DNA of 32,000 bases. It comes from Demequinaceae bacterium (lineage in GTDB: Bacteria; Actinomycetota; Actinomycetes; Actinomycetales; Demequinaceae). Below, one piece after another: positions 5,231-17,860 of the stretch (positions are counted from its first letter, which is position 1; the number at the start of each line of letters is the position of its first letter). The stretch covers positions 540,001 to 572,000 of the forward strand of contig OZ252279.1 in the NCBI GenBank assembly GCA_965250005.1, in the 5' to 3' direction. The notes under the pieces were generated by a model. The model had not been told where the DNA came from. It saw only the letters and a list, made by a program, of their open reading frames with translations, and searched no databases. A program made the position numbers and the translations under genes.

Positions 5231-6010
5231 CTACGAGTTGCCAATCGGAATGAAGAAGTTGCGGTCGTTGGGTTCCGGCTCGGGCTCGGGCGAAGCGCTC
5301 GGATCCGGGCTGGGCTCGGGCGACGGACTCACCGTCGGCTCTGGTTCCGGCCGCACCTGGATTTCCGGGTTTCCATAGTCAAGAGTGAAGAAGAACCCGC
5401 TCACCACAAGCCGCAAATCACCGGCGTCAAGAGAGACACCGAGGTCTTCCACGGACTCCGTGACCGCCGTGACCGCGAATGCCGTAACAAGGAAGTACTG
5501 ATGATCTCCCAGCTGCAGCGAGTTCATGAGTCCCAGAATCTGCTCTCGCGTGCCAGCGGTGGTGAGGTTGACCTGAGTGGCAATGACGCCCGTGAACGCG
5601 AGGCCGTCAACTTGTGAGACCAGACCCACCTCTGCCGCTGGAATGGCGAGCGAGATTCGGGGAGTGACGGTTTGAATGCTCCCAATCTCTTCAGCGAAGA
5701 TCACCAGGTCATTTTCCTCAAACAACTCGAATAGCAAGCGGCGAAGTTCCGGGATTTCGCGCTCGGCGGGAAGGTCATCTCGAATTTCGTAGATTTCTTC
5801 GCGGTACTGCGGAATCTGTTCAGCGTCTGCGATTCGTTTGGCGAGGCTCAACTCGAGTTGGAAATTGGAGTCCTCCTGTGCAATGCGCGCCTCCTCGGCG
5901 TCTGCCGCGCGCGCGAACCTCGGGCCGATGCCCAGCATCCACGTGACGAGGGCCAGAATCACCGCGAGAGCAATAACTCCTCCGACTAGCACACCGTTTG
6001 AACCTCTCAT
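5231..6010 (-). CDS. pilO: type IV pilus alignment-complex protein, PilO-like, with Pro/Glu/Ser-rich C-terminal tail
   Basis: 259-aa ORF. Short cytoplasmic N-terminus, one TM helix (VLVGGVIALAVILALVTWML), a charged coiled-coil-like stretch, then a globular region. ATGA overlap with the upstream pilN-like gene and the pilM-pilN-pilO order support the call. Assignment rests on architecture and context rather than strict motifs. Confidence 0.7.
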   Translation of the reverse strand: MRGSNGVLVGGVIALAVILALVTWMLGIGPRFARAADAEEARIAQEDSNFQLELSLAKRIADAEQIPQYREEIYEIRDDLPAEREIPELRRLLFELFEENDLVIFAEEIGSIQTVTPRISLAIPAAEVGLVSQVDGLAFTGVIATQVNLTTAGTREQILGLMNSLQLGDHQYFLVTAFAVTAVTESVEDLGVSLDAGDLRLVVSGFFFTLDYGNPEIQVRPEPEPTVSPSPEPSPDPSASPEPEPEPNDRNFFIPIGNS

Positions 6011-6984
6011 GCCGATGCCTCCTCGTTGGCGCTAGGGCTTGGTGAGGGCTCGGGGGCCACTCCGCCGCCAGCAAGCGCCGCAACAGCCTCGGCTGCCTTC
6101 GCCTCGGTAAACTGGATCAATGCGTCTTCAGCGTCTTGAAGAGCCTCTGCGGCGGCTGCGAGAACTGTCTCCGCTACCGCGAGCGTGGCCTGCGCCTCCG
6201 CTACGCCTTGATCTGCCTCGATCGCGGCTGTCAGAATCGCAGCCGCGGTTGCCACAGATACCGTCGCAAGTTCGACCTCTTCGGAGGCCTCCACAATAGC
6301 CTCACGGTAGATTTCGCGCTCGTTCCACGCGTCGCTAAACCGACCGGACAGTGCGACAGCGGTAATGCGGACAGACCCGCTGAACGTGTAATACTCGTCT
6401 TCCTCTACCTGGCGAGCCGCGCCAGGGATTGTCGTTCGGGCCAAGCCTGGTACTGAATTGAGCGCCTCTTCAAGGTCAGCAATGTTTGGGTATTCCAGGC
6501 TGCGGCCGCTGAAAGACAGGACGCCAATATCGGGGGCCGAGAATGGCCCCGCTTCTTGGCCCGCAACCACAAACGGCGTCGTTGGCAACCAGGTCAAGCC
6601 CTGGAGACTCACCGATTCGGGCATCGCGCGCGTAAGCCCGGTGATCAAATCGGACATGAGAATCTCTGTTCCGCCAAGGTAGAGTCGTGCGCTCTTCGCA
6701 TTCAGGAGCTCGGCCTGAATCACGGGGACGTGGTCGTACAACGCGATCTCGTCGTTGAGGGCCTGCGTCTTCGCATTTTCGAGTGCGAGCCTATCTTCCG
6801 CGGATCTCGCCTGCAGTTCGGTAAATCCAACCAACGCCACCAGCAACACAATGAACATTACGAACGCAACGATAATCAGTGCGCGACTGCGTCCCTTCGC
6901 ACGCCTGCTCTCGACCTCTGGCGGGATGAGGTTGACCTGTGGCGCAGCAGGAGCCTTGACGGAATCTGGGACTGTAGTGGTCAT
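6007..6984 (-). CDS. pilN: type IV pilus alignment-complex protein, PilN-like, with long Ala/Glu-rich C-terminal extension
   Basis: 325-aa ORF. N-terminal VNLIPPE matches the PilM-binding INLLP-type motif of PilN and is followed by one TM helix (ALIIVAFVMFIVLLVALVGF). ATGA overlap with the pilM stop. Confidence 0.75.
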   Translation of the reverse strand: MTTTVPDSVKAPAAPQVNLIPPEVESRRAKGRSRALIIVAFVMFIVLLVALVGFTELQARSAEDRLALENAKTQALNDEIALYDHVPVIQAELLNAKSARLYLGGTEILMSDLITGLTRAMPESVSLQGLTWLPTTPFVVAGQEAGPFSAPDIGVLSFSGRSLEYPNIADLEEALNSVPGLARTTIPGAARQVEEDEYYTFSGSVRITAVALSGRFSDAWNEREIYREAIVEASEEVELATVSVATAAAILTAAIEADQGVAEAQATLAVAETVLAAAAEALQDAEDALIQFTEAKAAEAVAALAGGGVAPEPSPSPSANEEASA

Positions 6985-8045
6985 GCGCCAACCTCCCCAA
7001 AAGCGAGTCCTATACAGATCGGTACGAGGGACGCACGTCCGTCGGCCAGGTCGCTGCGTACGCGACCGGAGACCTTCACCCGCGCCAGCCCGTCGCCAAA
7101 ACTTACGGGTAGACGGCTCGCGCTCGCAAGATACTGGCCCAACCCAGGAAGATGAGCGCCACCACCGGTCAGTACCACGTGCTGGATCGCGCCGCCCGGG
7201 TTGTTCCCTGCGTAGTAAACGAACGTATTGCGGATCGCCTCAACGAGGGTCCGAGAAGTCGTGGTGAGCGCCTCGGCGCCAAGCTTGTATTCCTCTGCGA
7301 CGGCAAAACCGATGCCGATTTCACGCTTGAGCTGTTCGGCATCCTGCGTGGAGACCTGCAATGCGCTTGCGACCGCATCGGTCGCGTCCTGGCCTCCGGA
7401 CGGAAGGGTGCGAACGAACCGCGGTGCACCGTCGGAGACCACAAGCACGTTGGTCGTGCGCGCGCCTATGTCAACGAAAGCGACGGTCTTTCCGCCCCAG
7501 TCGCCCGTTGCTTGCGCGCGGTATAGCGCAAATGCGTTTAGGTCGACCATCGTGGGCCGGAGTCCAGCAGACTCGATCGCGAGGACGTGCGTCGCAACTG
7601 TTGCTTTTGGTGCGGCGACAATAATGCCGCGCAGCGCGCGACCACCGGTCTCCGCATCGACCTCGGCCGTTGGGAAAAAGTCGAGGAGCGCCTCGTCCGT
7701 CGACATGGGGAGCATTTCCCCTACTTGAAACGGCAGCGACTGTCGGAGTTGCCCCATGGGCAACGACGGAATCTCGAGCTCGCGAACCACCACGCGCTGA
7801 CTGCCGACTCCTGAAATCACGTGTTTGCTGGAGAACTTGCCCTTGGTCCAAAGTCTTTTTAGAACGGACGCGACCGATTGGATTTCGTGAATCTCGCCGT
7901 CGCCAACGGCGCCTGCGGGGAGCGCCAACTCAGCGTACCTGACCAGCGTGGCTGATCCGGTCGCGGGCCCTCGGCCGGAGAATTCGACCTCGGCGGCGCG
8001 CACGTGCGTCGTGCCGATATCTAGGCCAACCTGACGTGTCGCCAC
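6981..8045 (-). CDS. pilM: type IV pilus assembly protein PilM (actin-like ATPase fold)
   Basis: 354-aa ORF. VGLDIGTTHVRAAEV and VDIGARTTNVLV are the phosphate-binding motifs of the actin/FtsA/PilM fold. GTG start with GAAGGGAG 5 nt upstream. Confidence 0.85.
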   Translation of the reverse strand: MATRQVGLDIGTTHVRAAEVEFSGRGPATGSATLVRYAELALPAGAVGDGEIHEIQSVASVLKRLWTKGKFSSKHVISGVGSQRVVVRELEIPSLPMGQLRQSLPFQVGEMLPMSTDEALLDFFPTAEVDAETGGRALRGIIVAAPKATVATHVLAIESAGLRPTMVDLNAFALYRAQATGDWGGKTVAFVDIGARTTNVLVVSDGAPRFVRTLPSGGQDATDAVASALQVSTQDAEQLKREIGIGFAVAEEYKLGAEALTTTSRTLVEAIRNTFVYYAGNNPGGAIQHVVLTGGGAHLPGLGQYLASASRLPVSFGDGLARVKVSGRVRSDLADGRASLVPICIGLAFGEVGA

Positions 8046-8109: not shown

Positions 8110-8883
8110 TCAGGTGATGAGTTTGAGGTATATATCACCTATCGCGGGCCCCGCTAGGTAGCCTGTCCAGGCAGCCACAATCAGCGCGGGTCCATAAGGT
8201 ACCTGCGACTTGCGGCGAAGTCTGCCCAATAGGAGACCCACAATAGCGGCAACTCCGCCGATCATCGGGCCAAGGAATCCGCCTACGGCCAGTTCTGCAT
8301 AACCCAGGTAGCCCGCCGCCATTCCAAGCAAGCCTGCGGTCTTCACGTCGCCGAACCCCATGCCTTTGGGGTAGATCAGCCACGCGAGGCCGTAATAACC
8401 GCCCCATGCGGCAAATCCAATACCGGCGCGCCCAAGATCGCCCCACGCGCCCTGAACTGCAGCATGTGCGGCTAGCGTCACTCCGAGGATCCCGTAGCTC
8501 GGAAGCACCAGCGAATTCGGAAGCCGCTTGACGTCCAAGTCGATGAAGAGCAGCGCGACGGAGACGACAGCAAGGTAGGCAAAACCCAAAGCCAAGAGCG
8601 TTAGGCCCCACGCCAAGTAGACGGCGACGAAAAGCGCGGCTACCAGGATTTCCACGAGCGGGTAGCGGCCTGAAATGGGCTCACGACAGTGCCGGCACCT
8701 CCGGCGCAGCCACAGCCACGACAACACCGGGATATTGTCGTACCAATCGATATCGTGCGCGCACCTCGGGCAATGACTTGAGCCGTTGACCCAATCTTGT
8801 CCCTTTGGGACCCGCGCAATTAGTACGTTCGTAAACGAGCCAACGATCAACCCGACCGCGACTACACCAAGTGTTTCTATCAC
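8110..8883 (-). CDS. pilD: bifunctional prepilin peptidase / N-methyltransferase (peptidase A24)
   Basis: 257-aa polytopic ORF. Paired cysteine motifs CPRCAHDI and CRHCREPI match the methyltransferase Zn motif. Both A24 catalytic Asp regions are present (FIDLDVKRLPN and GMGFGDVKTAG), plus the C-terminal VPYGPALIVAAW. Confidence 0.9.
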   Translation of the reverse strand: MIETLGVVAVGLIVGSFTNVLIARVPKGQDWVNGSSHCPRCAHDIDWYDNIPVLSWLWLRRRCRHCREPISGRYPLVEILVAALFVAVYLAWGLTLLALGFAYLAVVSVALLFIDLDVKRLPNSLVLPSYGILGVTLAAHAAVQGAWGDLGRAGIGFAAWGGYYGLAWLIYPKGMGFGDVKTAGLLGMAAGYLGYAELAVGGFLGPMIGGVAAIVGLLLGRLRRKSQVPYGPALIVAAWTGYLAGPAIGDIYLKLIT

Positions 8884-8889
8884 TCGCGG

Positions 8890-10380
8890 CTAGAAATGCT
8901 CTTGCTTGAAGACAAGCTCTACCTCGGAACCCTCGGCGGCCTCGACCTCGCCAACGACTAGTACGTCGGTTGGCAATTCCGCGGGCGCATAGAAGAATTT
9001 CTGGTGTGCGGTGAGGTCTACTTCGCCGGCGTAAATCTGGCCGTAGGTGTAGGTGTTGTTCTTGAATTCAACCACCTTCGGCGTGTAGAGGAAGATCTCC
9101 GTCGGCGGCTCCACCGTCGAGTTAGCGCTGAAAACAAGGTTCCCGTTTGTCGAGTTGTCGGACGGCACGATCAGGTAAAGCGTGAACGCTTCGCCCGGAA
9201 CTGAACTGATGTTCAGGCGGTTCGAGCCGTGAAATGCCTCGACAAAGAGCACTGTGTCTGCCCGCAGAATGATCGAACCCTTGTTCTTGGTCTCAAGATC
9301 ACAGTGGCGCAGGTCGTACACCGCAGGCTTGGTCGTGGCGGGGATTGTGATGGTCTTGCTTCCGATCTGGCACTCGTCGCTCAGACCCGCATGGGCCTTG
9401 AACTCGGTGGCGCCAAAGTCGTCAAATTCTGGAGTCCAATCCGTTATGTCGTACTCAAGAGTCGGAAATGCGATCGGCAGGAGGTTGGGTATTCCCACAA
9501 CGTTTTCTTCAAAGGTTCCGCCGACCAGAAGTGAATTCGACGTGACCGTGCCACCGATGAGCACGTTACCGCCAACTCCGGTGTTCGGATGCTGCGGGAT
9601 CGCATTGCCCTGTCGAATGGTTACGTCGCCCTCGACGCTGTTGTACGAAAAGTTGTTCTTGCTCTTCCAGTCGTATTGCACCCAGAGATCACCCTTGATT
9701 ACACACCCGTGGTTGTCAAAGTCGGCACCGCCCTGAACGATGTACAAACTTCCACTGACGGATACACCATGCTTGCACGTCCAGTCGCCGTCGTTGACCC
9801 AAATGTCTCCGTTTTCTCCCACGACACTCGGCTCGAGGTCAAAGTTCGCGTTGACGTCAAGCCCCGCGCCCGAGAAGATCGCGGAACTTACCGACGTGCC
9901 CGTCGACTCACGCGGAGTGAGGACCACTTTGGCGCGTACAACGCGCTTGGGGTTCAGCCCGAAGAACTCTTCTTCCGGAGTCCCTGTTGCCGTCACCATG
10001 GCGCCATACGGCGTCCCCGCGATGGTGCCGCCCGCAGGGCAATCCAGCGCGTCTCCGCTTTGATCCGTATATTCGATCGTGACGTTGACGCGGACCGCGT
10101 TGTTTCCCGAGCCAATCGTCTTGTTGTTTGCAAGCGCCTCACAGGGGCTTGCTCCCTCCAACTCGAGCAGCGTGGCGTCAACAGCCGCTTCGGCGGCGTG
10201 TACCTCAGCTGTTCGCACACTGTCACGTCCGGCGTCTCGCGACACGATGATGGCTTGAGTCACGACGAGCGTTGCGAGGGATATGCCGATGAGCGCGACT
10301 GCAAGTGCAGCCACCATCGCCGATCCTCCATCACCCGAGTTTCGCAAGGATACATTGCGGTTCATAATTGCCTTTCTCAC
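8890..10380 (-). CDS. PilX-N/GspK-like minor-pilin-type protein with large C-terminal beta-helix-like domain (candidate pilus tip factor)
   Basis: 496-aa ORF. The N-terminus SGDGGSAMVAALAVALIGISLATLVV followed by AEVHAAEAAVDA resembles the PilX N-terminal domain: a hydrophobic helix, no Glu5, then an AAEAG-like motif. Repetitive G-x-[VIL] strands span about aa 165-305. GTGA overlap with the upstream gene. An ATG at 10365 with GAAAGG upstream is an alternative start. Confidence 0.6.
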   Translation of the reverse strand: MRKAIMNRNVSLRNSGDGGSAMVAALAVALIGISLATLVVTQAIIVSRDAGRDSVRTAEVHAAEAAVDATLLELEGASPCEALANNKTIGSGNNAVRVNVTIEYTDQSGDALDCPAGGTIAGTPYGAMVTATGTPEEEFFGLNPKRVVRAKVVLTPRESTGTSVSSAIFSGAGLDVNANFDLEPSVVGENGDIWVNDGDWTCKHGVSVSGSLYIVQGGADFDNHGCVIKGDLWVQYDWKSKNNFSYNSVEGDVTIRQGNAIPQHPNTGVGGNVLIGGTVTSNSLLVGGTFEENVVGIPNLLPIAFPTLEYDITDWTPEFDDFGATEFKAHAGLSDECQIGSKTITIPATTKPAVYDLRHCDLETKNKGSIILRADTVLFVEAFHGSNRLNISSVPGEAFTLYLIVPSDNSTNGNLVFSANSTVEPPTEIFLYTPKVVEFKNNTYTYGQIYAGEVDLTAHQKFFYAPAELPTDVLVVGEVEAAEGSEVELVFKQEHF

Positions 10381-11060
10381 ACAGGTGGGATAACACTGCA
10401 GTTTGAGTCGGAGTAGCCAAACACGGTGTTGCGACCGGTGACTACGGTGCTCACGACTACGGGCTTGGAGCGATCGTCCGCCAATGGATCGAGAATCCGC
10501 AGCGTCACGCGAATGCTCTGAGCGGATGTGCCGGAGTTCTGGTTCGCGTCAATCCAGAAAGGCGGCCACGTCTGCGGATCGGCGGCGTCAATTGTTCCAC
10601 TCACCGGCGCGGCCACCGAGTTCTGTGCGACAACGTACCAGTCGGCCACGTCGCCCCAACTCAGTTCGTAGTCTGGATCCCAGGTCCGGTACTCAAGGTT
10701 TCCAAATTCCGCCTCGTCCGGGATGTTGACGCGCCACTGGGCGCATTTGAGTTCGCCGCCCTCCTGGGTGTACAGGCGCATCGAGTAACCCGCCGATACG
10801 CCGCTTTCGGCGACACCGTCGGCCGCCGGATCCTTAATGAGGTTGCCTGATCGGACCTGCCGGTCTATCTGCGAAACGCCCAGCCGCGCCTGTTGCACGG
10901 CGCGCTCGCGCGCAAGGTTGTCGCTCGCCTGATAGGTGAGATTGATCAAGATTGTGAATACCATCGCGAGCAGCATCGAGAACAGTGTCATGACGACGAG
11001 CATCTCCATCAGGCTGAATCCAGAATCGCGCGCTGCGTGGCGCCTAGGCATCGGGAGCAC
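10377..11060 (-). CDS. minor pilin, PilW/GspJ-like (prepilin-type N-terminal cleavage/methylation domain)
   Basis: 227-aa ORF. Class III signal peptide ...HAARDSG|FSLMEMLVVMTLFSMLLAMVF with Glu at +5. Overlaps the upstream gene by 17 nt, or 8 nt if the ATG at 11051 is used. Confidence 0.75.
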   Translation of the reverse strand: MLPMPRRHAARDSGFSLMEMLVVMTLFSMLLAMVFTILINLTYQASDNLARERAVQQARLGVSQIDRQVRSGNLIKDPAADGVAESGVSAGYSMRLYTQEGGELKCAQWRVNIPDEAEFGNLEYRTWDPDYELSWGDVADWYVVAQNSVAAPVSGTIDAADPQTWPPFWIDANQNSGTSAQSIRVTLRILDPLADDRSKPVVVSTVVTGRNTVFGYSDSNCSVIPPV

Positions 11061-12906
11061 CCCGGTATCCGGCAGACGCCTGCGAGCCGGTCAGGGTCGC
11101 ACCCACGTTGATCTCGTATTCGTAGGTGCCGCCTGCACCATCATCGACGGTCACCTCGTATGTTGTCGAAACTGAAATCGCCCCGACGGAGGCCGATATT
11201 TTGCACAGGTCCGCCACGCACTCGGGATCGTCATCGGACAGGCCCGGCGGGATATCACCGGTAATTGTCACGGTCGTAGTCGCAATCACGTTGATATTGC
11301 CGCCGGGCGGCGTCCAAGTGAGGACCGGTATCTCGGGAGCCTCAATGACCCGATTCGTCGAAACGTTGATCGGGACTTCCACGTAGTCGGCAATGTCATC
11401 GTCCCAAAACCACAAGGTCGCTGACCGGGTGATCACGGGAGCAGTTGTCTTCTGGTCGTGGCCCCGCTCGACCTTGACCTCGTCTTGGTATGCGGTGATA
11501 TACACGATGCCGTTCCACGCGGCGTCATTGTTTCCGGAGTCTTTCCATACTCGGGCTTCCGGGAACGAGAAGTGAATGGACGCGCTTGATGCTGACGCCC
11601 CCGCAGCAACACATCCCTCGTTGGTCACCGTCGTGCAGGCGATCGTTCCGGGATTCGCGGAATCGGAAAAACGGGCGACCCAGGACTCTTTGGCGGTTCC
11701 GGTAGCGCTCCCTCTGTACCAGGGCGACATCCCGAATCTCTCCGCTGCGCTGTTGGTGTAGTCGAGCCGGACTCTCGACTTGGTTAGTCCGCCAATATTC
11801 GCCTGCGCGCACGGGGTTCCCGCTGCCACACCAACGGCGCAGGCCTCGCTGACTGACGAATGCGTGCTCCCAGCCCCAAACTGGTCGCTATCGAAATAGG
11901 CGAAGAATTCAGCATCCACCGCTGACGTGATCGTATTGGGCGACGCCCCTGAGTGCGCGCGGACGTCTGTGTTGTCTATACCCGGATTGCCGACCGAAAC
12001 GGTATCGTCCGAAGCCTCGGTCACGATGAGTTCAAACCCGCGTGGGTAAGTGCCGGAGTAATCCGAGCCGTCCGCCTTGTGCACGCGCTCGCCGCCGTAC
12101 GCCAAGGATGCGTCGACGTTCGTTACCTGCTGGCTGGTTAGGCTCGCGCGCGTTTGCGAAGTCGTAATCCCAAGCGTGAACATCTCTCGACCGGGCATGA
12201 TTGATACGGCCGCACCACCTGCCAAATCGGGAAGATTGGCGGTCGCGCTGAACGAGAGCGACGCACTCGACGACGACGCGCTAAATCTGGCTTGACATGA
12301 ACTCAGGAAAGGCTGCGACTCGAGGCTCGCCAGGTCACTGCAACCCGCAGACGGCGCGTACGCGGTTGTCCGGTAGACGTCAGTTCGCATCTCACCCGAG
12401 CTGTTGTCTTCCCACGTCACAACAATCGTCATGCCCAACGTTTCGGCCCCGCCAAGCCCCTCTGTCACATATGCGCGTGTGGTGTAAACGGCGCCCGTTG
12501 CCTCAGGTGAAATATTGACAGTCTTGTTCGAGCCCGTCGAGTCGAAGAGAGGGGGCCACGCGTCGAGTCGGTTCTGTGCACCTTCGGTGCCAGTAGCGTT
12601 CGCAACTACGATCTCTTCGGCCACTCCTTCAATCGTCAAGGTGGTCCCAGACACGTAGGGGTCACCGCCAGACGCTGATTTGAAGTCGGCGTCCAAGCCT
12701 CGCGAAAGCACCGCGTACGGCATCGCGCGCATCTGCTCGATCGCGCCGTTCGCGTAGGCGGTAGCTTGCTGCCGGTGTCCTGCCTCCACGACCGAAACCA
12801 GTGCGGATGTTTGCACGGCCATGAGCACAAGGAGGACGCCCGTGATAATCATCATGGCGACAACAAGTTCAGCCATCGTGAATCCTTCTTCACGAGAGTT
12901 CAACAT
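11044..12906 (-). CDS. large modular minor pilin, PilV/GspI-like N-terminus plus about 400-aa extra module
   Basis: The ORF track gives 11044..13020 (658 aa). The prepilin motif MLNSREEG|FTMAELVVAMMIITGVLLVL starts at the ATG at 12906 (AAGG 7 nt upstream). The 38 upstream codons run through the pilA-distal hairpin, so the start was re-called, giving 620 aa. AGHRQQATAYANGAIEQMRAMPY resembles PilV. Confidence 0.75.
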   Translation of the reverse strand: MLNSREEGFTMAELVVAMMIITGVLLVLMAVQTSALVSVVEAGHRQQATAYANGAIEQMRAMPYAVLSRGLDADFKSASGGDPYVSGTTLTIEGVAEEIVVANATGTEGAQNRLDAWPPLFDSTGSNKTVNISPEATGAVYTTRAYVTEGLGGAETLGMTIVVTWEDNSSGEMRTDVYRTTAYAPSAGCSDLASLESQPFLSSCQARFSASSSSASLSFSATANLPDLAGGAAVSIMPGREMFTLGITTSQTRASLTSQQVTNVDASLAYGGERVHKADGSDYSGTYPRGFELIVTEASDDTVSVGNPGIDNTDVRAHSGASPNTITSAVDAEFFAYFDSDQFGAGSTHSSVSEACAVGVAAGTPCAQANIGGLTKSRVRLDYTNSAAERFGMSPWYRGSATGTAKESWVARFSDSANPGTIACTTVTNEGCVAAGASASSASIHFSFPEARVWKDSGNNDAAWNGIVYITAYQDEVKVERGHDQKTTAPVITRSATLWFWDDDIADYVEVPINVSTNRVIEAPEIPVLTWTPPGGNINVIATTTVTITGDIPPGLSDDDPECVADLCKISASVGAISVSTTYEVTVDDGAGGTYEYEINVGATLTGSQASAGYRGAPDA

Positions 12907-12986
12907 ACGTCGCCTTAGGTCACGCACTGCTCTTCTCCCTCCATGTGCCAAATCCCAGATCTCGCAGGATTCCTCAACACGCCTCC

Positions 12987-13016
12987 GGGTGGGGGCCTCA
13001 AGAGAGGTCCCCACCC
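12987..13016 (-). terminator. GC-rich stem-loop after pilA (candidate attenuator/terminator or mRNA stabiliser)
   Basis: mRNA sense GGGUGGGGA-CCUC-UCUU-GAGG-C-CCCCACCC gives 8 + 4 bp. It is preceded by a second hairpin at 13017..13040 (GCAGCAUU...AAUGCUUGC). No U-tract follows. Confidence 0.45.
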
Positions 13017-13040
13017 GCAAGCATTATGTCGAAATGCTGC

Positions 13041-13580: not shown

Positions 13581-14810
13581 TTAGTTGATCAACTCGAAGA
13601 TGCCGAAGATCGGCATATACAGGCCGATGATCATGGTGCCGATGATGCTGCCCAATACACCAATCATCAGTGGCTCGATCAGTGAGGTCAAGGCGTCTGT
13701 GGTGGATTCCACTTCCTGGTCGTAGAAGTCCGCGATCTTGTCAAGCATGGTGTCGAGCGCACCCGTGTCTTCACCCACCGAAATCATCTGAACCACCATG
13801 GCAGGGAAGACCGGGTGCTCCGCCAGCGGCCCGGCGAGGGTGTTTCCGGTGCGCACGGACTCCCGCACGTCGTTTGCCGCATGTTCGATTACGACGTTTC
13901 CGCTCGCCTCGCCCACGATGTCGAGCGCCTGCAGGATGGGAACGCCCGCGCGGATCATGGCCCCGAAGTTGCGAGTGAACCGCGAGATGGCGATTTTCTG
14001 AATGAGGCCGCCAAACACCGGAAGCTTGAGATACAACGGCTCGACCTTTTCGCGGAACGCCTTCTTGTTCTTGTTCTTGGTCCACAGCACGGACACGGCG
14101 AAACCTACGACGATCATGGGGATCGTGCCTACTTTTAAGAAACCAGAGATAGCAACGAGTGCCGCGGTAAGAGGTGGCAACTCGCCACCGAGAGTCGCGA
14201 ACATATTGGCGAACACGGGAACGATGAAAAGCAGCATGCCAATGACGGCAACGATCGCGATCACGAAAACCACGACAGGGTAGGCCATGGCCGACTTCAC
14301 CTTATTTCGCAGCTTCACTTCCGACTCAAAGTTTTCGGCAATGGACAACAGCACCGAGTCCAGGAATCCGCCAACTTCGCCGGCCCGAATCATGTTAATC
14401 ATGAGCGGAGGAAAGACTGCCGGGTGCCGGCCGATCGCTTGGGAGAGAGAGACGCCCGTCTCTACATCCGACCGCACGTCAAGAATGACCTTGCCAAGCG
14501 CGGCATTTTCCGTCTGCTCGGCAAGAATGTTCAGCGCGCGAATAATTGACAGGCCCGCCTGAATCATGGTCGCGAGTTGGCGCGAAAGGATCGAGATGTC
14601 CTTGAGGCCGATCTTGTCCGTGAGGCCGGGGATCTTGATTTCTCTCTTGAGTGCGCTCGCCCTAACGGCATCAATAGAGATGGGAGCGAGGCCCATGGAT
14701 CGCAGCTTGGACGACACCGCGGCCTCGTTGGGCGCCTCGATCTCGCCGTTCTGGATGCGCCCCTGAGTATCACGGTACGAATACTTGAAAGTCTGCGTCG
14801 CGGTCGCCAT
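13581..14810 (-). CDS. pilC: type IV pilus platform protein PilC (T2SS F family)
   Basis: 409-aa polytopic ORF with the duplicated T2SSF signature (GEVGGFLDSVL and GEDTGALDTML). Confidence 0.93.
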   Translation of the reverse strand: MATATQTFKYSYRDTQGRIQNGEIEAPNEAAVSSKLRSMGLAPISIDAVRASALKREIKIPGLTDKIGLKDISILSRQLATMIQAGLSIIRALNILAEQTENAALGKVILDVRSDVETGVSLSQAIGRHPAVFPPLMINMIRAGEVGGFLDSVLLSIAENFESEVKLRNKVKSAMAYPVVVFVIAIVAVIGMLLFIVPVFANMFATLGGELPPLTAALVAISGFLKVGTIPMIVVGFAVSVLWTKNKNKKAFREKVEPLYLKLPVFGGLIQKIAISRFTRNFGAMIRAGVPILQALDIVGEASGNVVIEHAANDVRESVRTGNTLAGPLAEHPVFPAMVVQMISVGEDTGALDTMLDKIADFYDQEVESTTDALTSLIEPLMIGVLGSIIGTMIIGLYMPIFGIFELIN

Positions 14811-14819
14811 GAGTTGTCC

Positions 14820-16124
14820 CTATACCCCTTGGGTTCCGACGGACTGGCCCTGCTTCTGGCCGCCCTCACGTCCGGCGAGTCGGTTAAACTCCTCGACGTG
14901 GTGGCACTTCTCTAGCCCGGTCTCGTACGAAATCTTGTTGATGCGCACCAACTCAGCCAAGTGCTGGTCCATGGTGTGCATACCGAGTGACGACCCTGCC
15001 TGCATCGCGGAGTAAATCTGGTGCGTCTTGCCCTCGCGAACCAGGTTACGAATAGCAGACGTCGCGATCAGCACTTCTGTGGCGACAGCGCGGCCGGGTC
15101 CGTCGCTGCGCTTGCACAATGTCTGACAGACAACCCCCTGAAGCGCGGTCGCTAACTGTGTCCTAATCTGACCCTGCTGGTGCGACGGGAATACATCGAT
15201 CACGCGGTCGATCGTCTGCGCCGCGTCCTGGGTGTGAAGGGTCGCGAATACCAGGTGGCCGGTCTCCGCAGCTGTCAGCGCCACAGAAACTGTTTCGAGG
15301 TCGCGCATCTCGCCCACCAAGATAATATCCGGGTCCTGACGCAACACGTGCTTCAGGGCGTTTCCAAAAGAGTGTGTGTCGGCGCCAACCTCGCGCTGGT
15401 TAACAAGCGACTTCTTGTGGCGGTGGAGGAACTCGATGGGATCCTCAACGGTCATGATGTGATCACTGCGGCTGCGGTTCGCAAGATCAATAATCGACGC
15501 CAGCGTCGTGGATTTGCCGGATCCCGTCGGTCCGGTAACAAGCACCAACCCGCGCGGAATCCCCGCGAAGTTTCCCACGACTGGAGGGATACCGAGGGAC
15601 TCGAGAGGCTGAATCTCGTAAGGGATGATGCGGAAAGCCGCACCCAGCGAATCGCGCTGCTGGTAGAGGTTCACGCGAAAACGCGCCTCCCCCACTAGCG
15701 CGTACGCGAAGTCAAGTTCGAGTTCCGCCTCAAACTGCTCTCGCTGCTTTTGGGAAAGGATGCTGTACATCACTCGCTGGACGGCGTCGGGTTTCAGGAG
15801 CGCAAACCCCTCGAGTTGCGTAAGCGCGCCGTCGACACGCGCCATAGGCGGTGCGCCTACCGTGATGTGAAGGTCGGATCCACCCATCGCAAGCATCTTG
15901 CGAAGCGCGCCAGAAAGGTCCAGGTCGTCCGGCTGAGAATCTCTGCTGAGTCCAACACGCCCGGCCCCAGCTGAAGCCGCCTGTGCCGCCTGCGGAGCGG
16001 GCGCCGATCCGGGTGCTGGAGGAACAGTTGCCGTCGAGGCGCCAGCTGCCGGACTTGCTTGCGCAGCGCGCGCCTGGGAGCGAGTCACTTGGCCCTGTGC
16101 CAACTCATGCGGGCTCTGCGTCAC
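14820..16124 (-). CDS. pilT: type IV pilus retraction ATPase PilT with about 70-aa Ala/Pro/Gln-rich N-terminal extension
   Basis: 434-aa ORF. Walker A GPTGSGKSTT, Walker B ILVGEMRD, His box LVFATLHT and the PilT-specific AIRNLVREGK are all present. GTG start at 16124 with GGGAG 7 nt upstream. Confidence 0.92.
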   Translation of the reverse strand: MTQSPHELAQGQVTRSQARAAQASPAAGASTATVPPAPGSAPAPQAAQAASAGAGRVGLSRDSQPDDLDLSGALRKMLAMGGSDLHITVGAPPMARVDGALTQLEGFALLKPDAVQRVMYSILSQKQREQFEAELELDFAYALVGEARFRVNLYQQRDSLGAAFRIIPYEIQPLESLGIPPVVGNFAGIPRGLVLVTGPTGSGKSTTLASIIDLANRSRSDHIMTVEDPIEFLHRHKKSLVNQREVGADTHSFGNALKHVLRQDPDIILVGEMRDLETVSVALTAAETGHLVFATLHTQDAAQTIDRVIDVFPSHQQGQIRTQLATALQGVVCQTLCKRSDGPGRAVATEVLIATSAIRNLVREGKTHQIYSAMQAGSSLGMHTMDQHLAELVRINKISYETGLEKCHHVEEFNRLAGREGGQKQGQSVGTQGV

Positions 16125-16201
16125 AACTTTTCTCCCGGTCTTGCGTCGAGTTGATAGCGACTGCTGTCTTATCGACCATTTTGGACAATTCTTGAGCGGC
16201 G

Positions 16202-17860
16202 CTACTTAGCGACGCGGAACAACTCCTCGATTGACGTCAGGCCCTCCTGAACCTTGGTCCAACCGTCCTGGAGCAGCGTCTGCATTCCCTGCTCTTTTGC
16301 GACCTTCGCGATCTCGGCAGACGAAGCGCGCGCCACCGCGAGCCTCTCGATATCCTCGGTGACTGTCATAACTTCGTGCAGCGCAAGCCTGCCGCGGTAG
16401 CCCGTGTTGGAGCAGGCGCTGCAGCCCTCTGGGCGAAATAGGATAGGCACCTTGTTTCCGGTCCACCCGAATCGTTCCTTGAGCGCGTCGGCCTCGGGTT
16501 CGTACTCACTTTTGCACTTAGTACACAGCAAGCGGGCAAGTCGCTGGGCGACGACACAGTCAATTGCGGAGCCAACGAGGAACGGTTCGATGTCCATCTC
16601 GATTAGTCGCGTGATAGCGCTCGGCGCATCGTTGGTGTGAAGAGTCGACAGCACGAGGTGTCCGGTGAGTGCCGCTTCAATCGCAATCTGCGCGGTCTCG
16701 TGGTCGCGGATCTCACCGACGAGCACAACGTCGGGGTCCGACCGCAAGATCGAGCGTAGGGCGCTCGCAAAAGTGAGCCCGGCCTTCACGTTTACCTGCA
16801 CTTGATTGATATTGGGAATCCGGTACTCAACGGGATCCTCAACCGTGATCACGTTGATTTCGGGGCGCGCCACCTGATTGAGCGTTGCGTACAACGTGGT
16901 TGACTTTCCCGACCCCGTAGGTCCTGTCACCAGAATCATTCCGTACGGCTTTTGGAACGACTCCTGATAACGCTCGTAGTTTTCTGGCCGAATGCCCAGG
17001 TCTTCAAGGTCCATCGTTGCCGTGGTGTTGTCGAGGATGCGCATGACGATCTTCTCGCCCCACACGGTTGGCAGGGTGGCGACGCGGAGGTCAATCTTGC
17101 GTCCCTGGTGGTTGACGGAGAGTCGACCATCCTGGGGCCGGCGGCGTTCTGCGATATCCACGTCAGCCATGATTTTGAGGCGCGAGATCACTCCGTTCTG
17201 GATTGCCTTCGCGGCCCGCTGCATCTCGTGGAGCACGCCGTCAATGCGGTACCGGACGCGCATGTCCTTCTCGGCTGGCTCGATGTGAATATCCGAGGCT
17301 CGGTCCTGGATCGCCTGGGTAATGAGCAGGTTGACGAACCGGACGATTGGCGCATCGTCCTCGATGACGTCGCCCATGCCGTCTGCTTCGCCATCAGAAT
17401 TATCTTCGAGCGAGTCCTGGAGGTCGTCCAACTCGCTATCGGCACGACAGAACCGGTCGATTGCCGCGACCACGTCGTCGTGCGCGGCCACCACGGGGAT
17501 GACCTCACGGTTAGTGAGGGTGCGGAAATCATCTACGGCAACCACATTGCCTGGGTTGGACATGGCAATCCGAATGACGCCTTCGTCAATCCCGATCGGC
17601 AGCGCCGTGTGGCGCCGGCAAACCTGAGCGGGAACCAGGGCGACGGCGGCTTGGTCTACCGGATAGTCGGCGAGTTCGACGAACTCCATGCCTACCTGAC
17701 TCGCAAGAGCACGAACCAGCTGAGCTTCCGATATCAGCCCGAGCTCGACAAGCGTGCGCCCCAGAGACTGGCCTCGCTTCTGCTGCTCGTCGATGGCATC
17801 CATCAACTGCTCTTCAGACAGCGAACCGTCCTCAAGAAGGATGGAACCCAGTTGCTTCAC
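16202..17860 (-). CDS. pilB: type IV pilus extension ATPase PilB (GspE family)
   Basis: 552-aa ORF. N-terminal T2SSE_N/MshEN-like repeats, Walker A GPTGSGKSTT, VLVGEIRD, LVLSTLHTNDA, and the tetracysteine CTKC...CSAC typical of extension ATPases. GTG start with GAGGGAG upstream. Confidence 0.93.
   Translation of the reverse strand: MKQLGSILLEDGSLSEEQLMDAIDEQQKRGQSLGRTLVELGLISEAQLVRALASQVGMEFVELADYPVDQAAVALVPAQVCRRHTALPIGIDEGVIRIAMSNPGNVVAVDDFRTLTNREVIPVVAAHDDVVAAIDRFCRADSELDDLQDSLEDNSDGEADGMGDVIEDDAPIVRFVNLLITQAIQDRASDIHIEPAEKDMRVRYRIDGVLHEMQRAAKAIQNGVISRLKIMADVDIAERRRPQDGRLSVNHQGRKIDLRVATLPTVWGEKIVMRILDNTTATMDLEDLGIRPENYERYQESFQKPYGMILVTGPTGSGKSTTLYATLNQVARPEINVITVEDPVEYRIPNINQVQVNVKAGLTFASALRSILRSDPDVVLVGEIRDHETAQIAIEAALTGHLVLSTLHTNDAPSAITRLIEMDIEPFLVGSAIDCVVAQRLARLLCTKCKSEYEPEADALKERFGWTGNKVPILFRPEGCSACSNTGYRGRLALHEVMTVTEDIERLAVARASSAEIAKVAKEQGMQTLLQDGWTKVQEGLTSIEELFRVAK

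Follow-up and report, generated by a model that had tools for sequence, protein, structure and literature searches.

The window analysed here, a 32,000-nucleotide stretch of the genome of a Demequinaceae bacterium, contains a type IVa pilus operon on the reverse strand, in which three overlapping genes for minor pilins lie between pilA and pilD. The first of them encodes an unusually large minor pilin (henceforth referred to as the giant pilin) and has pilD ~2 kb downstream of it (Table 1). The gene order of the operon, pilB-pilT-pilC-pilA, followed by genes for a protein of ~600 aa, a pilin of ~230 aa and a Glu5-less protein of ~500 aa, and then by pilD-pilM-pilN-pilO, is the same in 14 loci (C. 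xiejunii and 13 others), and in Cellulomonas, Demequinaceae and other Actinomycetota the operon sits inside the aro cluster. The gene of the second minor pilin (227 aa) shares 17 nt with the 3' end of the giant pilin gene, and the gene of the third protein (496 aa) overlaps that of the second by 4 nt, which suggests that the translation of the three is coupled. The 227-aa pilin is present in all loci compared, with invariant C106, C221 and GRNT motif. The 496-aa protein has no Pfam or NCBIfam match; its profile weakly matches 4wa0, a 'possible adhesin' (E 0.018), and the phage baseplate entries 4s36/4s37. Profiles made for the two families from the related loci matched nothing but pilin helices in the case of the 227-aa protein and hinted weakly at a beta-helix in the case of the 496-aa protein; they tied neither to GspJ or GspK. 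No PilY1 family match was obtained for any of the window ORFs scanned.

Table 1. Features of the pilus locus, with positions counted from the first nucleotide of the window.
Feature	Position	Strand	Remarks
Alignment-complex block	5231..8045	(-)	pilM, pilN-like gene, gene in pilO position
Gene in pilO position	5231-6010	(-)	C. xiejunii orthologue has a faint PilO match
pilN-like gene	6007-6984	(-)	Weak Pfam PilN match
pilM	6981-8045	(-)	Pfam PilM_2, E 2e-42
Prepilin peptidase PilD	8110..8883	(-)	Pfam A24_N_bact, E 1.2e-33; Peptidase_A24, E 8.6e-8
Third minor-pilin-like protein, 496 aa	8890..10380	(-)	GG/SAMVAALAV, without Glu5; hydrophobic N-terminus
Second minor pilin, 227 aa	10377..11060	(-)	G/FSLME; Pfam N_methyl, E 4.3e-7; weak GspJ-type matches
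Giant minor pilin, CDS	11044..12927	(-)	620 aa from ATG 12906, 627 aa from GTG 12927; stop codon 11044-11046
C-terminal module, residues 206-620	11047..12291	(-)	~28 strands (AF2); Cys pairs 356/366, 424/432, 563/568
Neck, residues 186-205	12292..12351	(-)	C189-x14-C204; motif YAPxGGCGDxxxQPFLxxCQA (conservation)
Globular beta-sheet of pilin module, residues 61-185	12352..12726	(-)	AF2 strands; median identity to family 29%
Alpha-1 helix, residues 9-60	12727..12882	(-)	Mature Glu5 and PilV-like segment; helix 11-60 in AF2 model
Leader peptide MLNSREEG	12883..12906	(-)	Final Gly precedes prepilin-peptidase cleavage site; extends to 12927 with GTG start
RNA hairpin between pilA and giant pilin gene	12973..13033	(-)	-53.8 kcal/mol; z-score -3.2 against shuffles
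Major pilin PilA, 139 aa	13041..13460	(-)	Pfam N_methyl, E 4.8e-10; GspG and PilA family matches
Motor/platform block	13581..17860	(-)	pilB, pilT, pilC
pilC	13581-14810	(-)	Pfam T2SSF
pilT	14820-16124	(-)	Pfam T2SSE
pilB	16202-17860	(-)	Pfam T2SSE and MshEN

Minus-strand translation of 11044-12906 yielded 620 codons and a stop, with the N-terminus MLNSREEG/FTMAELVVAMMII (the slash marks the cleavage site), and thus confirmed the 620-aa ORF with a class III signal peptide and Glu5 (G/FTMAE; MLNSREEG/FTMAELVVAMMIITGVLLVLMAV) described in the original prediction. The true start of the gene is probably GTG 12927, seven codons upstream of the ATG: the Shine-Dalgarno sequence GGAGGGAG sits 7 nt upstream of this GTG, and the resulting leader of 15 residues agrees with the family mode of 14-18. 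Several database entries, including one that is 100% identical, start at an internal Met (M11), which removes the signal peptide and so prevents the protein from being recognised as a pilin at all. The signal peptide, together with a pilus operon that includes PilD, PilB, PilT, PilC, PilM and a PilN-like protein, argues that the giant pilin is a real prepilin. We considered whether the operon might instead specify a short pseudopilus of a secretion- or DNA-uptake-type machine, with the large subunit kept within the cell wall, as might be suggested by database names such as 'type II secretion system protein' and 'GspH family' and by the scores of PilA against the GspG and ComGC models, which lie below cutoff. 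However, the PilT retraction ATPase, an MshEN-bearing PilB, PilM and PilN are typical of type IVa pili, and among the work cited in PMC12871210 are adhesive type IV pili on Actinoplanes zoospores; we therefore regard a pseudopilus as improbable.

The eight cysteines of the giant pilin (positions 189, 204, 356, 366, 424, 432, 563 and 568) form four local pairs with spacings of x14, x9, x7 and x4, as had been predicted, and 57-151 residues separate one pair from the next. In a simulation, eight randomly placed cysteines fell into four consecutive pairs no more than 14 residues apart in only ~7e-4 of the runs. The original prediction had placed all four pairs inside the extra region; this holds for 356/366, 424/432 and 563/568, whereas the first pair, C189/C204, marks the junction of the pilin with the extra module and lies outside the latter. 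The richness of the region in Ser, Thr, Gly and Ala was borne out by the composition of residues 201-620 (Ala 13.1%, Ser 11.7%, Thr 10.0% and Gly 9.3%).

The N-terminal part of the giant pilin is predicted to have a pilin fold, that is, a long N-terminal alpha-helix followed by an antiparallel beta-sheet, with strands in the AF2 model at residues 89-92, 95-99, 128-132, 140-149, 156-166 and 173-183. The PilV-like character previously ascribed to the N-terminus is seen in the alignment of TIGR02523 (PilV) with residues 7-72 (E 2.5e-8), but the score of 34.5 bits is under the curated cutoff of 52.2 and the match is confined to these residues, so that the protein does not qualify as a PilV family member; its placement in the I/PilV position would rest on this sub-cutoff N-terminal match. 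The XpsI model also matches the N-terminus (E 0.017), as does, weakly, the Pfam Tt1218-like model, whose namesake gene lies close to that of ComZ in one Thermus cluster. Pfam N_methyl scores 15.3 bits, below its cutoff of 21.2, and does match 15 of 20 homologues. The neck, which follows the sheet, is the best-conserved stretch outside alpha-1 (top-residue frequency 0.65), and its cysteines are retained in 150 (C189) and 151 (C204) of 151 family representatives. The full-length AF2 model has a pLDDT of 79 and a pTM of 0.67, with residues 186-193 below a pLDDT of 50; this dip in confidence, taken with the confident model of the C-terminal module alone (see below), is what two modules of uncertain mutual orientation would give.

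When residues 206-620 were modelled alone (AF2, 138 sequences), the pLDDT rose to 92.7 and the pTM to 0.92, and the 415-residue module is accordingly predicted to be one rigid all-beta unit. Since the module is predicted to be well folded, the suggestion that this part of the protein might be disordered fails, and the models uphold the view of a two-part prepilin of unusual size, in which a separately folded module follows the pilin module. Searches of residues 206-620 of the giant pilin and of 20 homologues found no Pfam or NCBIfam domain, and searches of PDB sequences, with the single sequence and with the family profile, matched the N-terminal helix only (profile E >0.4). Foldseek searches of the PDB and BFVD returned no real neighbour of the module among the matches listed (TM <=0.2), and hhalign comparisons of segments, and of the module with itself, revealed no internal repeats. 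No known domain, in agreement with the original prediction, and no solved-structure relative is thus recognised in residues 206-620. The top Foldseek matches were outer-membrane beta-barrels (FadL, OmpT/Pla and OmpF), which we rejected, the TM being 0.09-0.20 and the rmsd 17-30 A; the likeness is confined to local up-and-down beta-hairpin geometry. The actinobacteria from which the related loci come (Cellulomonas, Demequinaceae and others) are not known to have an outer membrane.

The same searches bear on whether the module could be an enzyme displayed on the pilus, acting for instance on polysaccharide or the cell wall. Pilins with peptidase modules are on record (PMC8179133), and many of the hosts, such as Cellulomonas, degrade polysaccharides. 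However, no catalytic family was detected for the module in Pfam, NCBIfam or PDB sequences, either with the query or with the 20 homologues, and Foldseek gave no enzyme neighbour among the matches listed. The invariant residues besides the cysteines are mostly Gly, Trp, Arg and Gln and are scattered along the strands. With no catalytic signature found, the enzymatic option is left without support, and we consider it very improbable.

A profile search for the family returned 202 clusters (50% identity) at E<1e-30, and nearly all of the best 150 of these have 558-640 aa and match end to end over profile positions 1-605. The G[FS][TS]xxE motif is found in 126 of 150 full-length members, the rest being internal-Met start calls or variant motifs. 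Each of the eight cysteine columns holds Cys in 140-151 of the 151 representatives; the losses are mostly alignment slips, and in one member with six cysteines (P0123) C563 and C568 are lost together. The module itself can be aligned over more than 150 clusters (~21% identity) and keeps a constant length, and in the best 150 profile matches it occurs in no other architecture. A search with a profile of the module by itself returned only three family members, the word filter being saturated by the Ser/Thr/Ala/Gly-rich sequence. Apparent short matches (L016-L020) proved to be full-length ORFs with a divergent C-terminal part, of which L016 is frameshifted. In a further family profile search the same 20 proteins were recovered, plus one.

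These data also speak to the possibility that the long ORF is an artefact of a two-gene fusion or a frameshift, as raised with the original prediction, or of a sequencing error. All homologues, at identities of 20-75%, have the full length, and they occur in isolates and in metagenome-assembled genomes of independent projects, the gene order is the same in the 14 loci, and the prediction for the module is of a single contiguous, confident fold; furthermore, the M11 start miscalls shorten the protein and do not lengthen it. We therefore rejected this reading, to which we assign next to no probability. Module swapping among orthologues, which had been proposed as a comparison to make, was not seen: all full-length members carry the same 415-aa module. 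The term modular pilin, which had been applied to the protein, holds in the loose sense of a separate folded module carried on a predicted pilin module, as in CofB, ComZ and GspK. The strict definition, which demands that the grafted domain be known in contexts other than pilus biology too (Raynaud et al. 2021, PMC8179133), does not cover it, because the module has no Pfam or NCBIfam domain and occurs only in this architecture among the best 150 matches. Pilin modules without a signature have already been anticipated in the literature.

Among known systems, the PilB (vWA) and PilC (lectin) pilins of S. sanguinis resemble the giant pilin in belonging to a monoderm type IVa pilus and in having a class III signal with Glu5 and a small pilin module followed by a bulky C-terminal module. 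The S. sanguinis PilABC set likewise consists of three co-encoded minor pilins, one of them without Glu5, in a system from which PilY1 is absent (PMC8179133, PMC9934059), and the bulky modules have been modelled at the pilus tip (PMC8179133, PMC9934059). Lack of Glu5 is a feature that the 496-aa protein shares with GspK and S. sanguinis PilA (PMC9934059) and with PilX. However, each S. sanguinis module is a recognisable domain that also occurs beyond pilins, whereas the giant-pilin module has neither a signature nor, in the searches above, a structural neighbour; there is no detectable sequence relationship between the giant pilin and PilB or PilC; and the Glu5-less partner, of 496 aa here, is small in S. 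sanguinis PilA. PilV and GspI have a similar N-terminal helix, and their genes likewise come first among those for minor pilins that follow the gene for the major pilin but, unlike the giant pilin, they are of ~120-190 aa with no extra module.

CofB of ETEC CFA/III and TcpB of Vibrio cholerae, which belong to the same group, are also large minor pilins and resemble the giant pilin in combining a pilin module with beta-rich C-terminal domains without signature. They differ from it in being type IVb pilins of diderms that form homotrimers, whereas the giant pilin is part of a three-gene minor pilin set; moreover, CofB has beta-repeat and beta-sandwich domains and a flexible linker, whereas the giant-pilin module is one predicted rigid 415-aa unit. 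In the competence-associated ComZ of Thermus thermophilus the extra module, which is reported to be a beta-solenoid and has been linked to DNA binding, interrupts the pilin fold as an insertion, whereas the giant-pilin module is appended after the pilin domain. CofB and TcpB were absent from the 50 matches listed per Foldseek search of the PDB, and ComZ was likewise absent from the 50 matches listed. As described in PMC8179133, CofB is predicted to lie exposed at the tip of its pilus, and ComZ, also a large minor pilin with a beta-rich, signature-less module, is thought to lie at the tip (PMC8179133). A possible functional counterpart is PilY1/PilC, the tip adhesin of diderm type IVa pili, a large beta-rich effector that the minor pilin complex presents at the tip. 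PilY1 is absent from monoderms (PMC9934059) and is a non-pilin with a beta-propeller domain (IPR008707), a domain that was not found in the giant pilin.

On these grounds we think it rather probable that the giant pilin is a minor pilin of two modules, belonging to a retractile type IVa pilus of a monoderm actinobacterium, and that it displays its C-terminal module at the tip, probably for attachment. PilD would cleave the leader after the Gly, and the hydrophobic alpha-1 helix would enter the filament core. The giant pilin, the 227-aa pilin and the Glu5-less 496-aa protein would form an assembly-priming complex that then remains at the tip, mirroring GspI-J-K, PilVWX and S. sanguinis PilABC; we infer the tip location by analogy with GspIJK and S. 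sanguinis PilABC (PMC9934059). There the module would be the contact surface of the pilus, a binding role likewise suggested by analogy, and PilT retraction would pull on the held target. The cysteine pairs are predicted to form extracytoplasmic disulfides, which may stiffen loops against the pulling force.

The constant length of the module and its conservation across orders are atypical of adhesins, and a structural role fits them at least as well. We considered whether the module is mainly structural, belonging as a conserved component to the priming or cap complex, with any ligand binding left to a different subunit, for example the 496-aa protein and its beta-helix-like region; the module might dock the 496-aa protein, replace PilY1 in its assembly role or help the tip to cross the thick cell wall. 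The lack of swapping, the strong conservation of the neck between the two modules and the apparent translational coupling of the three genes are consistent with this, as is the fact that the sole adhesin-like hint, that to 4wa0, concerns the 496-aa neighbour. However, that match is weak, 415 residues are large for a pure adaptor, and the comparable bulky modules of S. sanguinis are adhesive (PMC8179133, PMC9934059), and we consider a mainly structural role rather unlikely. The preferred reading of a tip-displayed, probably attachment-related module can be extended further, though here we are tentative and see the extension as possible but doubtful: residues 206-620 could represent a new fold and domain family that serves as a conserved tip effector of actinomycetotal type IVa pili, substituting for PilY1 in attachment (for example to insoluble polysaccharide or to other surfaces) and working with the 496-aa protein as a beta-helix-like cap.

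Hardly any work has been done on type IV pili in Actinomycetota; the experimental studies cited in PMC12871210 are those on Actinoplanes zoospores and on regulation in Rubrobacter. The giant pilin family has never been studied, though it is conserved in many Actinobacteria, and it offers a conserved candidate for the pilus component in contact with the outside in Cellulomonas and its relatives. It would extend the idea that pili gain functions via pilin-borne modules to a module that is ancient and fixed across a phylum-level group, not swapped. Upstream of the gene, the strong RNA hairpin that separates it from pilA, which has no U-tract and was not called by a consensus scan, may terminate transcription in part and thereby set how much major pilin is made relative to minor pilin.

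Translation of the minus-strand ORF of the giant pilin yielded 620 residues with the N-terminus MLNSREEG/FTMAELVVAMMII (the slash marks the cleavage site), which bears out the class III (prepilin) signal peptide of the original prediction: a short polar leader to Gly, then Phe, Glu5 of the mature protein and ~20 hydrophobic residues. The predicted length and the Ser/Thr/Gly/Ala-rich extra region also stood, with these four residues making up 44% of positions 201-620. Translation probably starts from the GTG at 12927 rather than the ATG at 12906, because a good Shine-Dalgarno sequence (GGAGGGAG) lies 7 nt upstream of the GTG; the resulting leader has 15 residues, near the family mode (14-18). 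As listed in the table, the neighbouring genes are all on the same strand and, by Pfam and NCBIfam, together make up a complete type IVa pilus operon.

Features of the pilus operon around the giant pilin gene (window coordinates)
Feature	Position	Strand	Domain match or remark
pilB	16202-17860	-	T2SSE + MshEN
pilT	14820-16124	-	T2SSE
pilC	13581-14810	-	T2SSF
major pilin (pilA), 139 aa	13041-13460	-	N_methyl
giant pilin	11044-12906	-	subject of analysis
227-aa pilin	10377-11060	-	canonical signal peptide
496-aa protein	8890-10380	-	pilin-like N-terminus without Glu5
pilD	8110-8883	-	A24_N_bact, Peptidase_A24
pilM	6981-8045	-	PilM_2
pilN-like, 325 aa	6007-6984	-	weak PilN match, Pfam E 0.0017
pilO position, 259 aa	5231-6010	-	no Pfam match; C. 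xiejunii orthologue with faint PilO match

A single-sequence search returned 20 homologues, all 583-636 aa long and 31-100% identical, which come from species of Cellulomonas and from uncultured Actinobacteria. In a profile search against 1.84 billion representatives, 202 clusters scored E<1e-30 and 496 scored E<1e-10. The best 150 of the 202 clusters were nearly all 558-640 aa long and aligned over profile positions 1-605 in one stretch, with no sign of a frameshifted gene pair among the homologues. Moreover, C. xiejunii shares the order pilA-[~600]-[~230]-[~500-570]-pilD-pilM with 13 further loci, among them Demequinaceae, Frankiales and Mycobacteriales MAGs; we therefore rejected a fusion artefact as the origin of the ORF. 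Judged from these sequences, the large size is an old, fixed trait of the family and no recent graft. The prepilin motif was present in 126 of the 150 full-length members; the remainder mostly begin at an internal Met as a result of faulty gene calls, with variant motifs in a few. Such miscalled starts (M-A/V-E-L-V-V-A-M) were seen in the database entries P0001 (100% identical to the giant pilin), P0002, P0003, P0005, P0011, P0026 and P0031, which carry no N_methyl annotation because the leader and the G/F cleavage site have been cut off. In the MAG MFD02840.bin.2.105 (locus L016, 8046-11800), the orthologues of the giant pilin and of the genes downstream of it are broken by frame changes, which look like an assembly error rather than a real truncation.

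The AlphaFold2 model of the whole protein (20 sequences; pLDDT 79, pTM 0.67) contained a helix at residues 11-60, a pilin-type sheet to residue 183, a confidence dip at 186-193 and an all-beta region at 207-615. When residues 206-620 were modelled alone with 138 sequences, pLDDT reached 92.7 and pTM 0.92, with ~28 strands, no helices and every segment at pLDDT 50 or more; the C-terminal region is thus predicted to be folded rather than disordered, and the model indicates one rigid unit, while the lower whole-protein pTM would fit an uncertain orientation of the two modules. No internal repeats were found in the module. Median identity to family members rose from ~21% in the module to 29% in the globular part of the pilin and 46% in alpha-1, and the neck (residues 186-205, YAPxGGCGDxxxQPFLxxCQA) had the top conservation outside alpha-1.

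The module had been described as matching no recognisable domain, and this held in every search: Pfam and NCBIfam detected nothing beyond the pilin features of the N-terminus, whether in the query or in any of the 20 homologues, single-sequence and profile searches of PDB sequences found only other pilin helices (E>0.4), and Foldseek against BFVD found nothing under E 0.02. Among the Foldseek matches listed for the PDB there were only outer-membrane beta-barrels (FadL, Pla/OmpT, OmpF); we rejected this fold despite E-values of ~1e-4, given TM-scores of 0.09-0.20 and rmsd of 17-30 A, and the matches reflect local up-and-down hairpin geometry and no common fold.

The eight cysteines (189, 204, 356, 366, 424, 432, 563 and 568) have exactly the predicted count and spacings (C-x14-C, C-x9-C, C-x7-C and C-x4-C), although C189/C204 lies at the junction of the modules and not within the extra region. 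The pairs are 57-151 residues apart, and four such consecutive pairs arose from eight random positions in ~7e-4 of simulated trials. Each of the eight columns was Cys in 140-151 of the 151 family sequences (modal Cys count 8); apparent losses were mostly alignment slips, and in one member C563 and C568 were both gone together.

Overall, the pilin identity and bimodular build are well supported, and the giant pilin is very probably a real bimodular minor pilin. Modular pilins are already recognised as widespread, and many with signature-less modules are expected, e.g. CofB, ComZ and GspK (PMC8179133). What is new is a 415-residue, uncharacterised module with a confidently predicted fold and no detectable relative, which is fixed throughout a large actinobacterial family and belongs to a barely studied pilus system.

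The genes of the three minor pilins overlap by 17 nt (giant pilin/227-aa) and 4 nt (227-aa/496-aa), which suggests coupled translation. In the 227-aa pilin, C106 and C221 are invariant and a GRNT motif close to the C-terminus is conserved; the protein matched GspJ-type models only weakly. The N-terminus of the 496-aa protein (…SGDGG/SAMVAALAVALIGISL) resembles a pilin signal without Glu5, cf. GspK and PilX, and the protein had no match in Pfam or NCBIfam. Its family profile, built from related loci, had a weak match at residues 149-234 to 4wa0 (E 0.018), annotated as a 'possible adhesin', and further matches to 4s36/4s37, which are phage baseplate proteins. We take 4wa0 to be a Caldicellulosiruptor tapirin and 4s36/4s37 to be pyocin spike proteins, and this would point to a beta-helix region. 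Invariant cysteines are a further feature of the family, as are a conserved Lys and Glu close to the C-terminus (consensus YKRE). The 496-aa protein may be the actual cap or adhesin. No PilY1-type protein was found among the window ORFs scanned.

In T2SS and T4P, the co-encoded minor pilins H, I, J and K prime assembly and cap the filament, and the K subunit has no Glu5. In the monoderm S. sanguinis, models place the three minor pilins PilA, PilB and PilC at the tip, with PilB and PilC acting there as adhesins through their bulky modules (PMC8179133, PMC9934059). The three coupled genes here likewise encode a Glu5-less 496-aa protein, an ordinary 227-aa pilin and the bulky giant pilin. By analogy with these established systems, the favoured mechanism has four steps and is reasonably likely as a whole: the leader would be processed by PilD, the alpha-1 helix would enter the filament core, the giant pilin would form a tip complex with the 227-aa pilin and the 496-aa protein, and the putatively disulfide-stapled module would be displayed for attachment; PilT is present at the locus for retraction. 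That the giant pilin itself is an adhesin is a tentative proposal drawn from the S. sanguinis modules. Constant module length and phylum-wide conservation fit at least as well with its main rival, in which the module serves the priming or cap complex as a structural component, and only the 496-aa neighbour provides an adhesin-like hint at this locus; we nevertheless consider this structural role unlikely. The enzymatic module offered as an option in the original prediction found no support.

The 113-nt gap that separates pilA from the giant pilin gene contains a very stable hairpin (12973-13033, minus strand; -53.8 kcal/mol, z-score -3.2). The hairpin lacks a U-tract, and a consensus terminator scan did not call it; it may reduce read-through to the genes of the minor pilins. 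Housekeeping genes flank the operon, alaS-ruvX-mltG-aroE at one end and aroC-aroK-aroB-aroQ-efp-nusB at the other, so that it sits between aroE and aroC of a conserved cluster (window 1-23100), as in Cellulomonas (C. xiejunii, L001). To our knowledge, the prepilin peptidase gene is the only one retained at this position in other actinobacteria, and if this holds, it would suggest that the operon is ancestral and has decayed in many lineages. The 259-aa protein at the pilO position has a C-terminal stretch weakly matching SslE. PilT carries an N-terminal extension that is Ala/Pro/Gln-rich over roughly its first 75 residues, and its T2SSE match starts only at residue 189.
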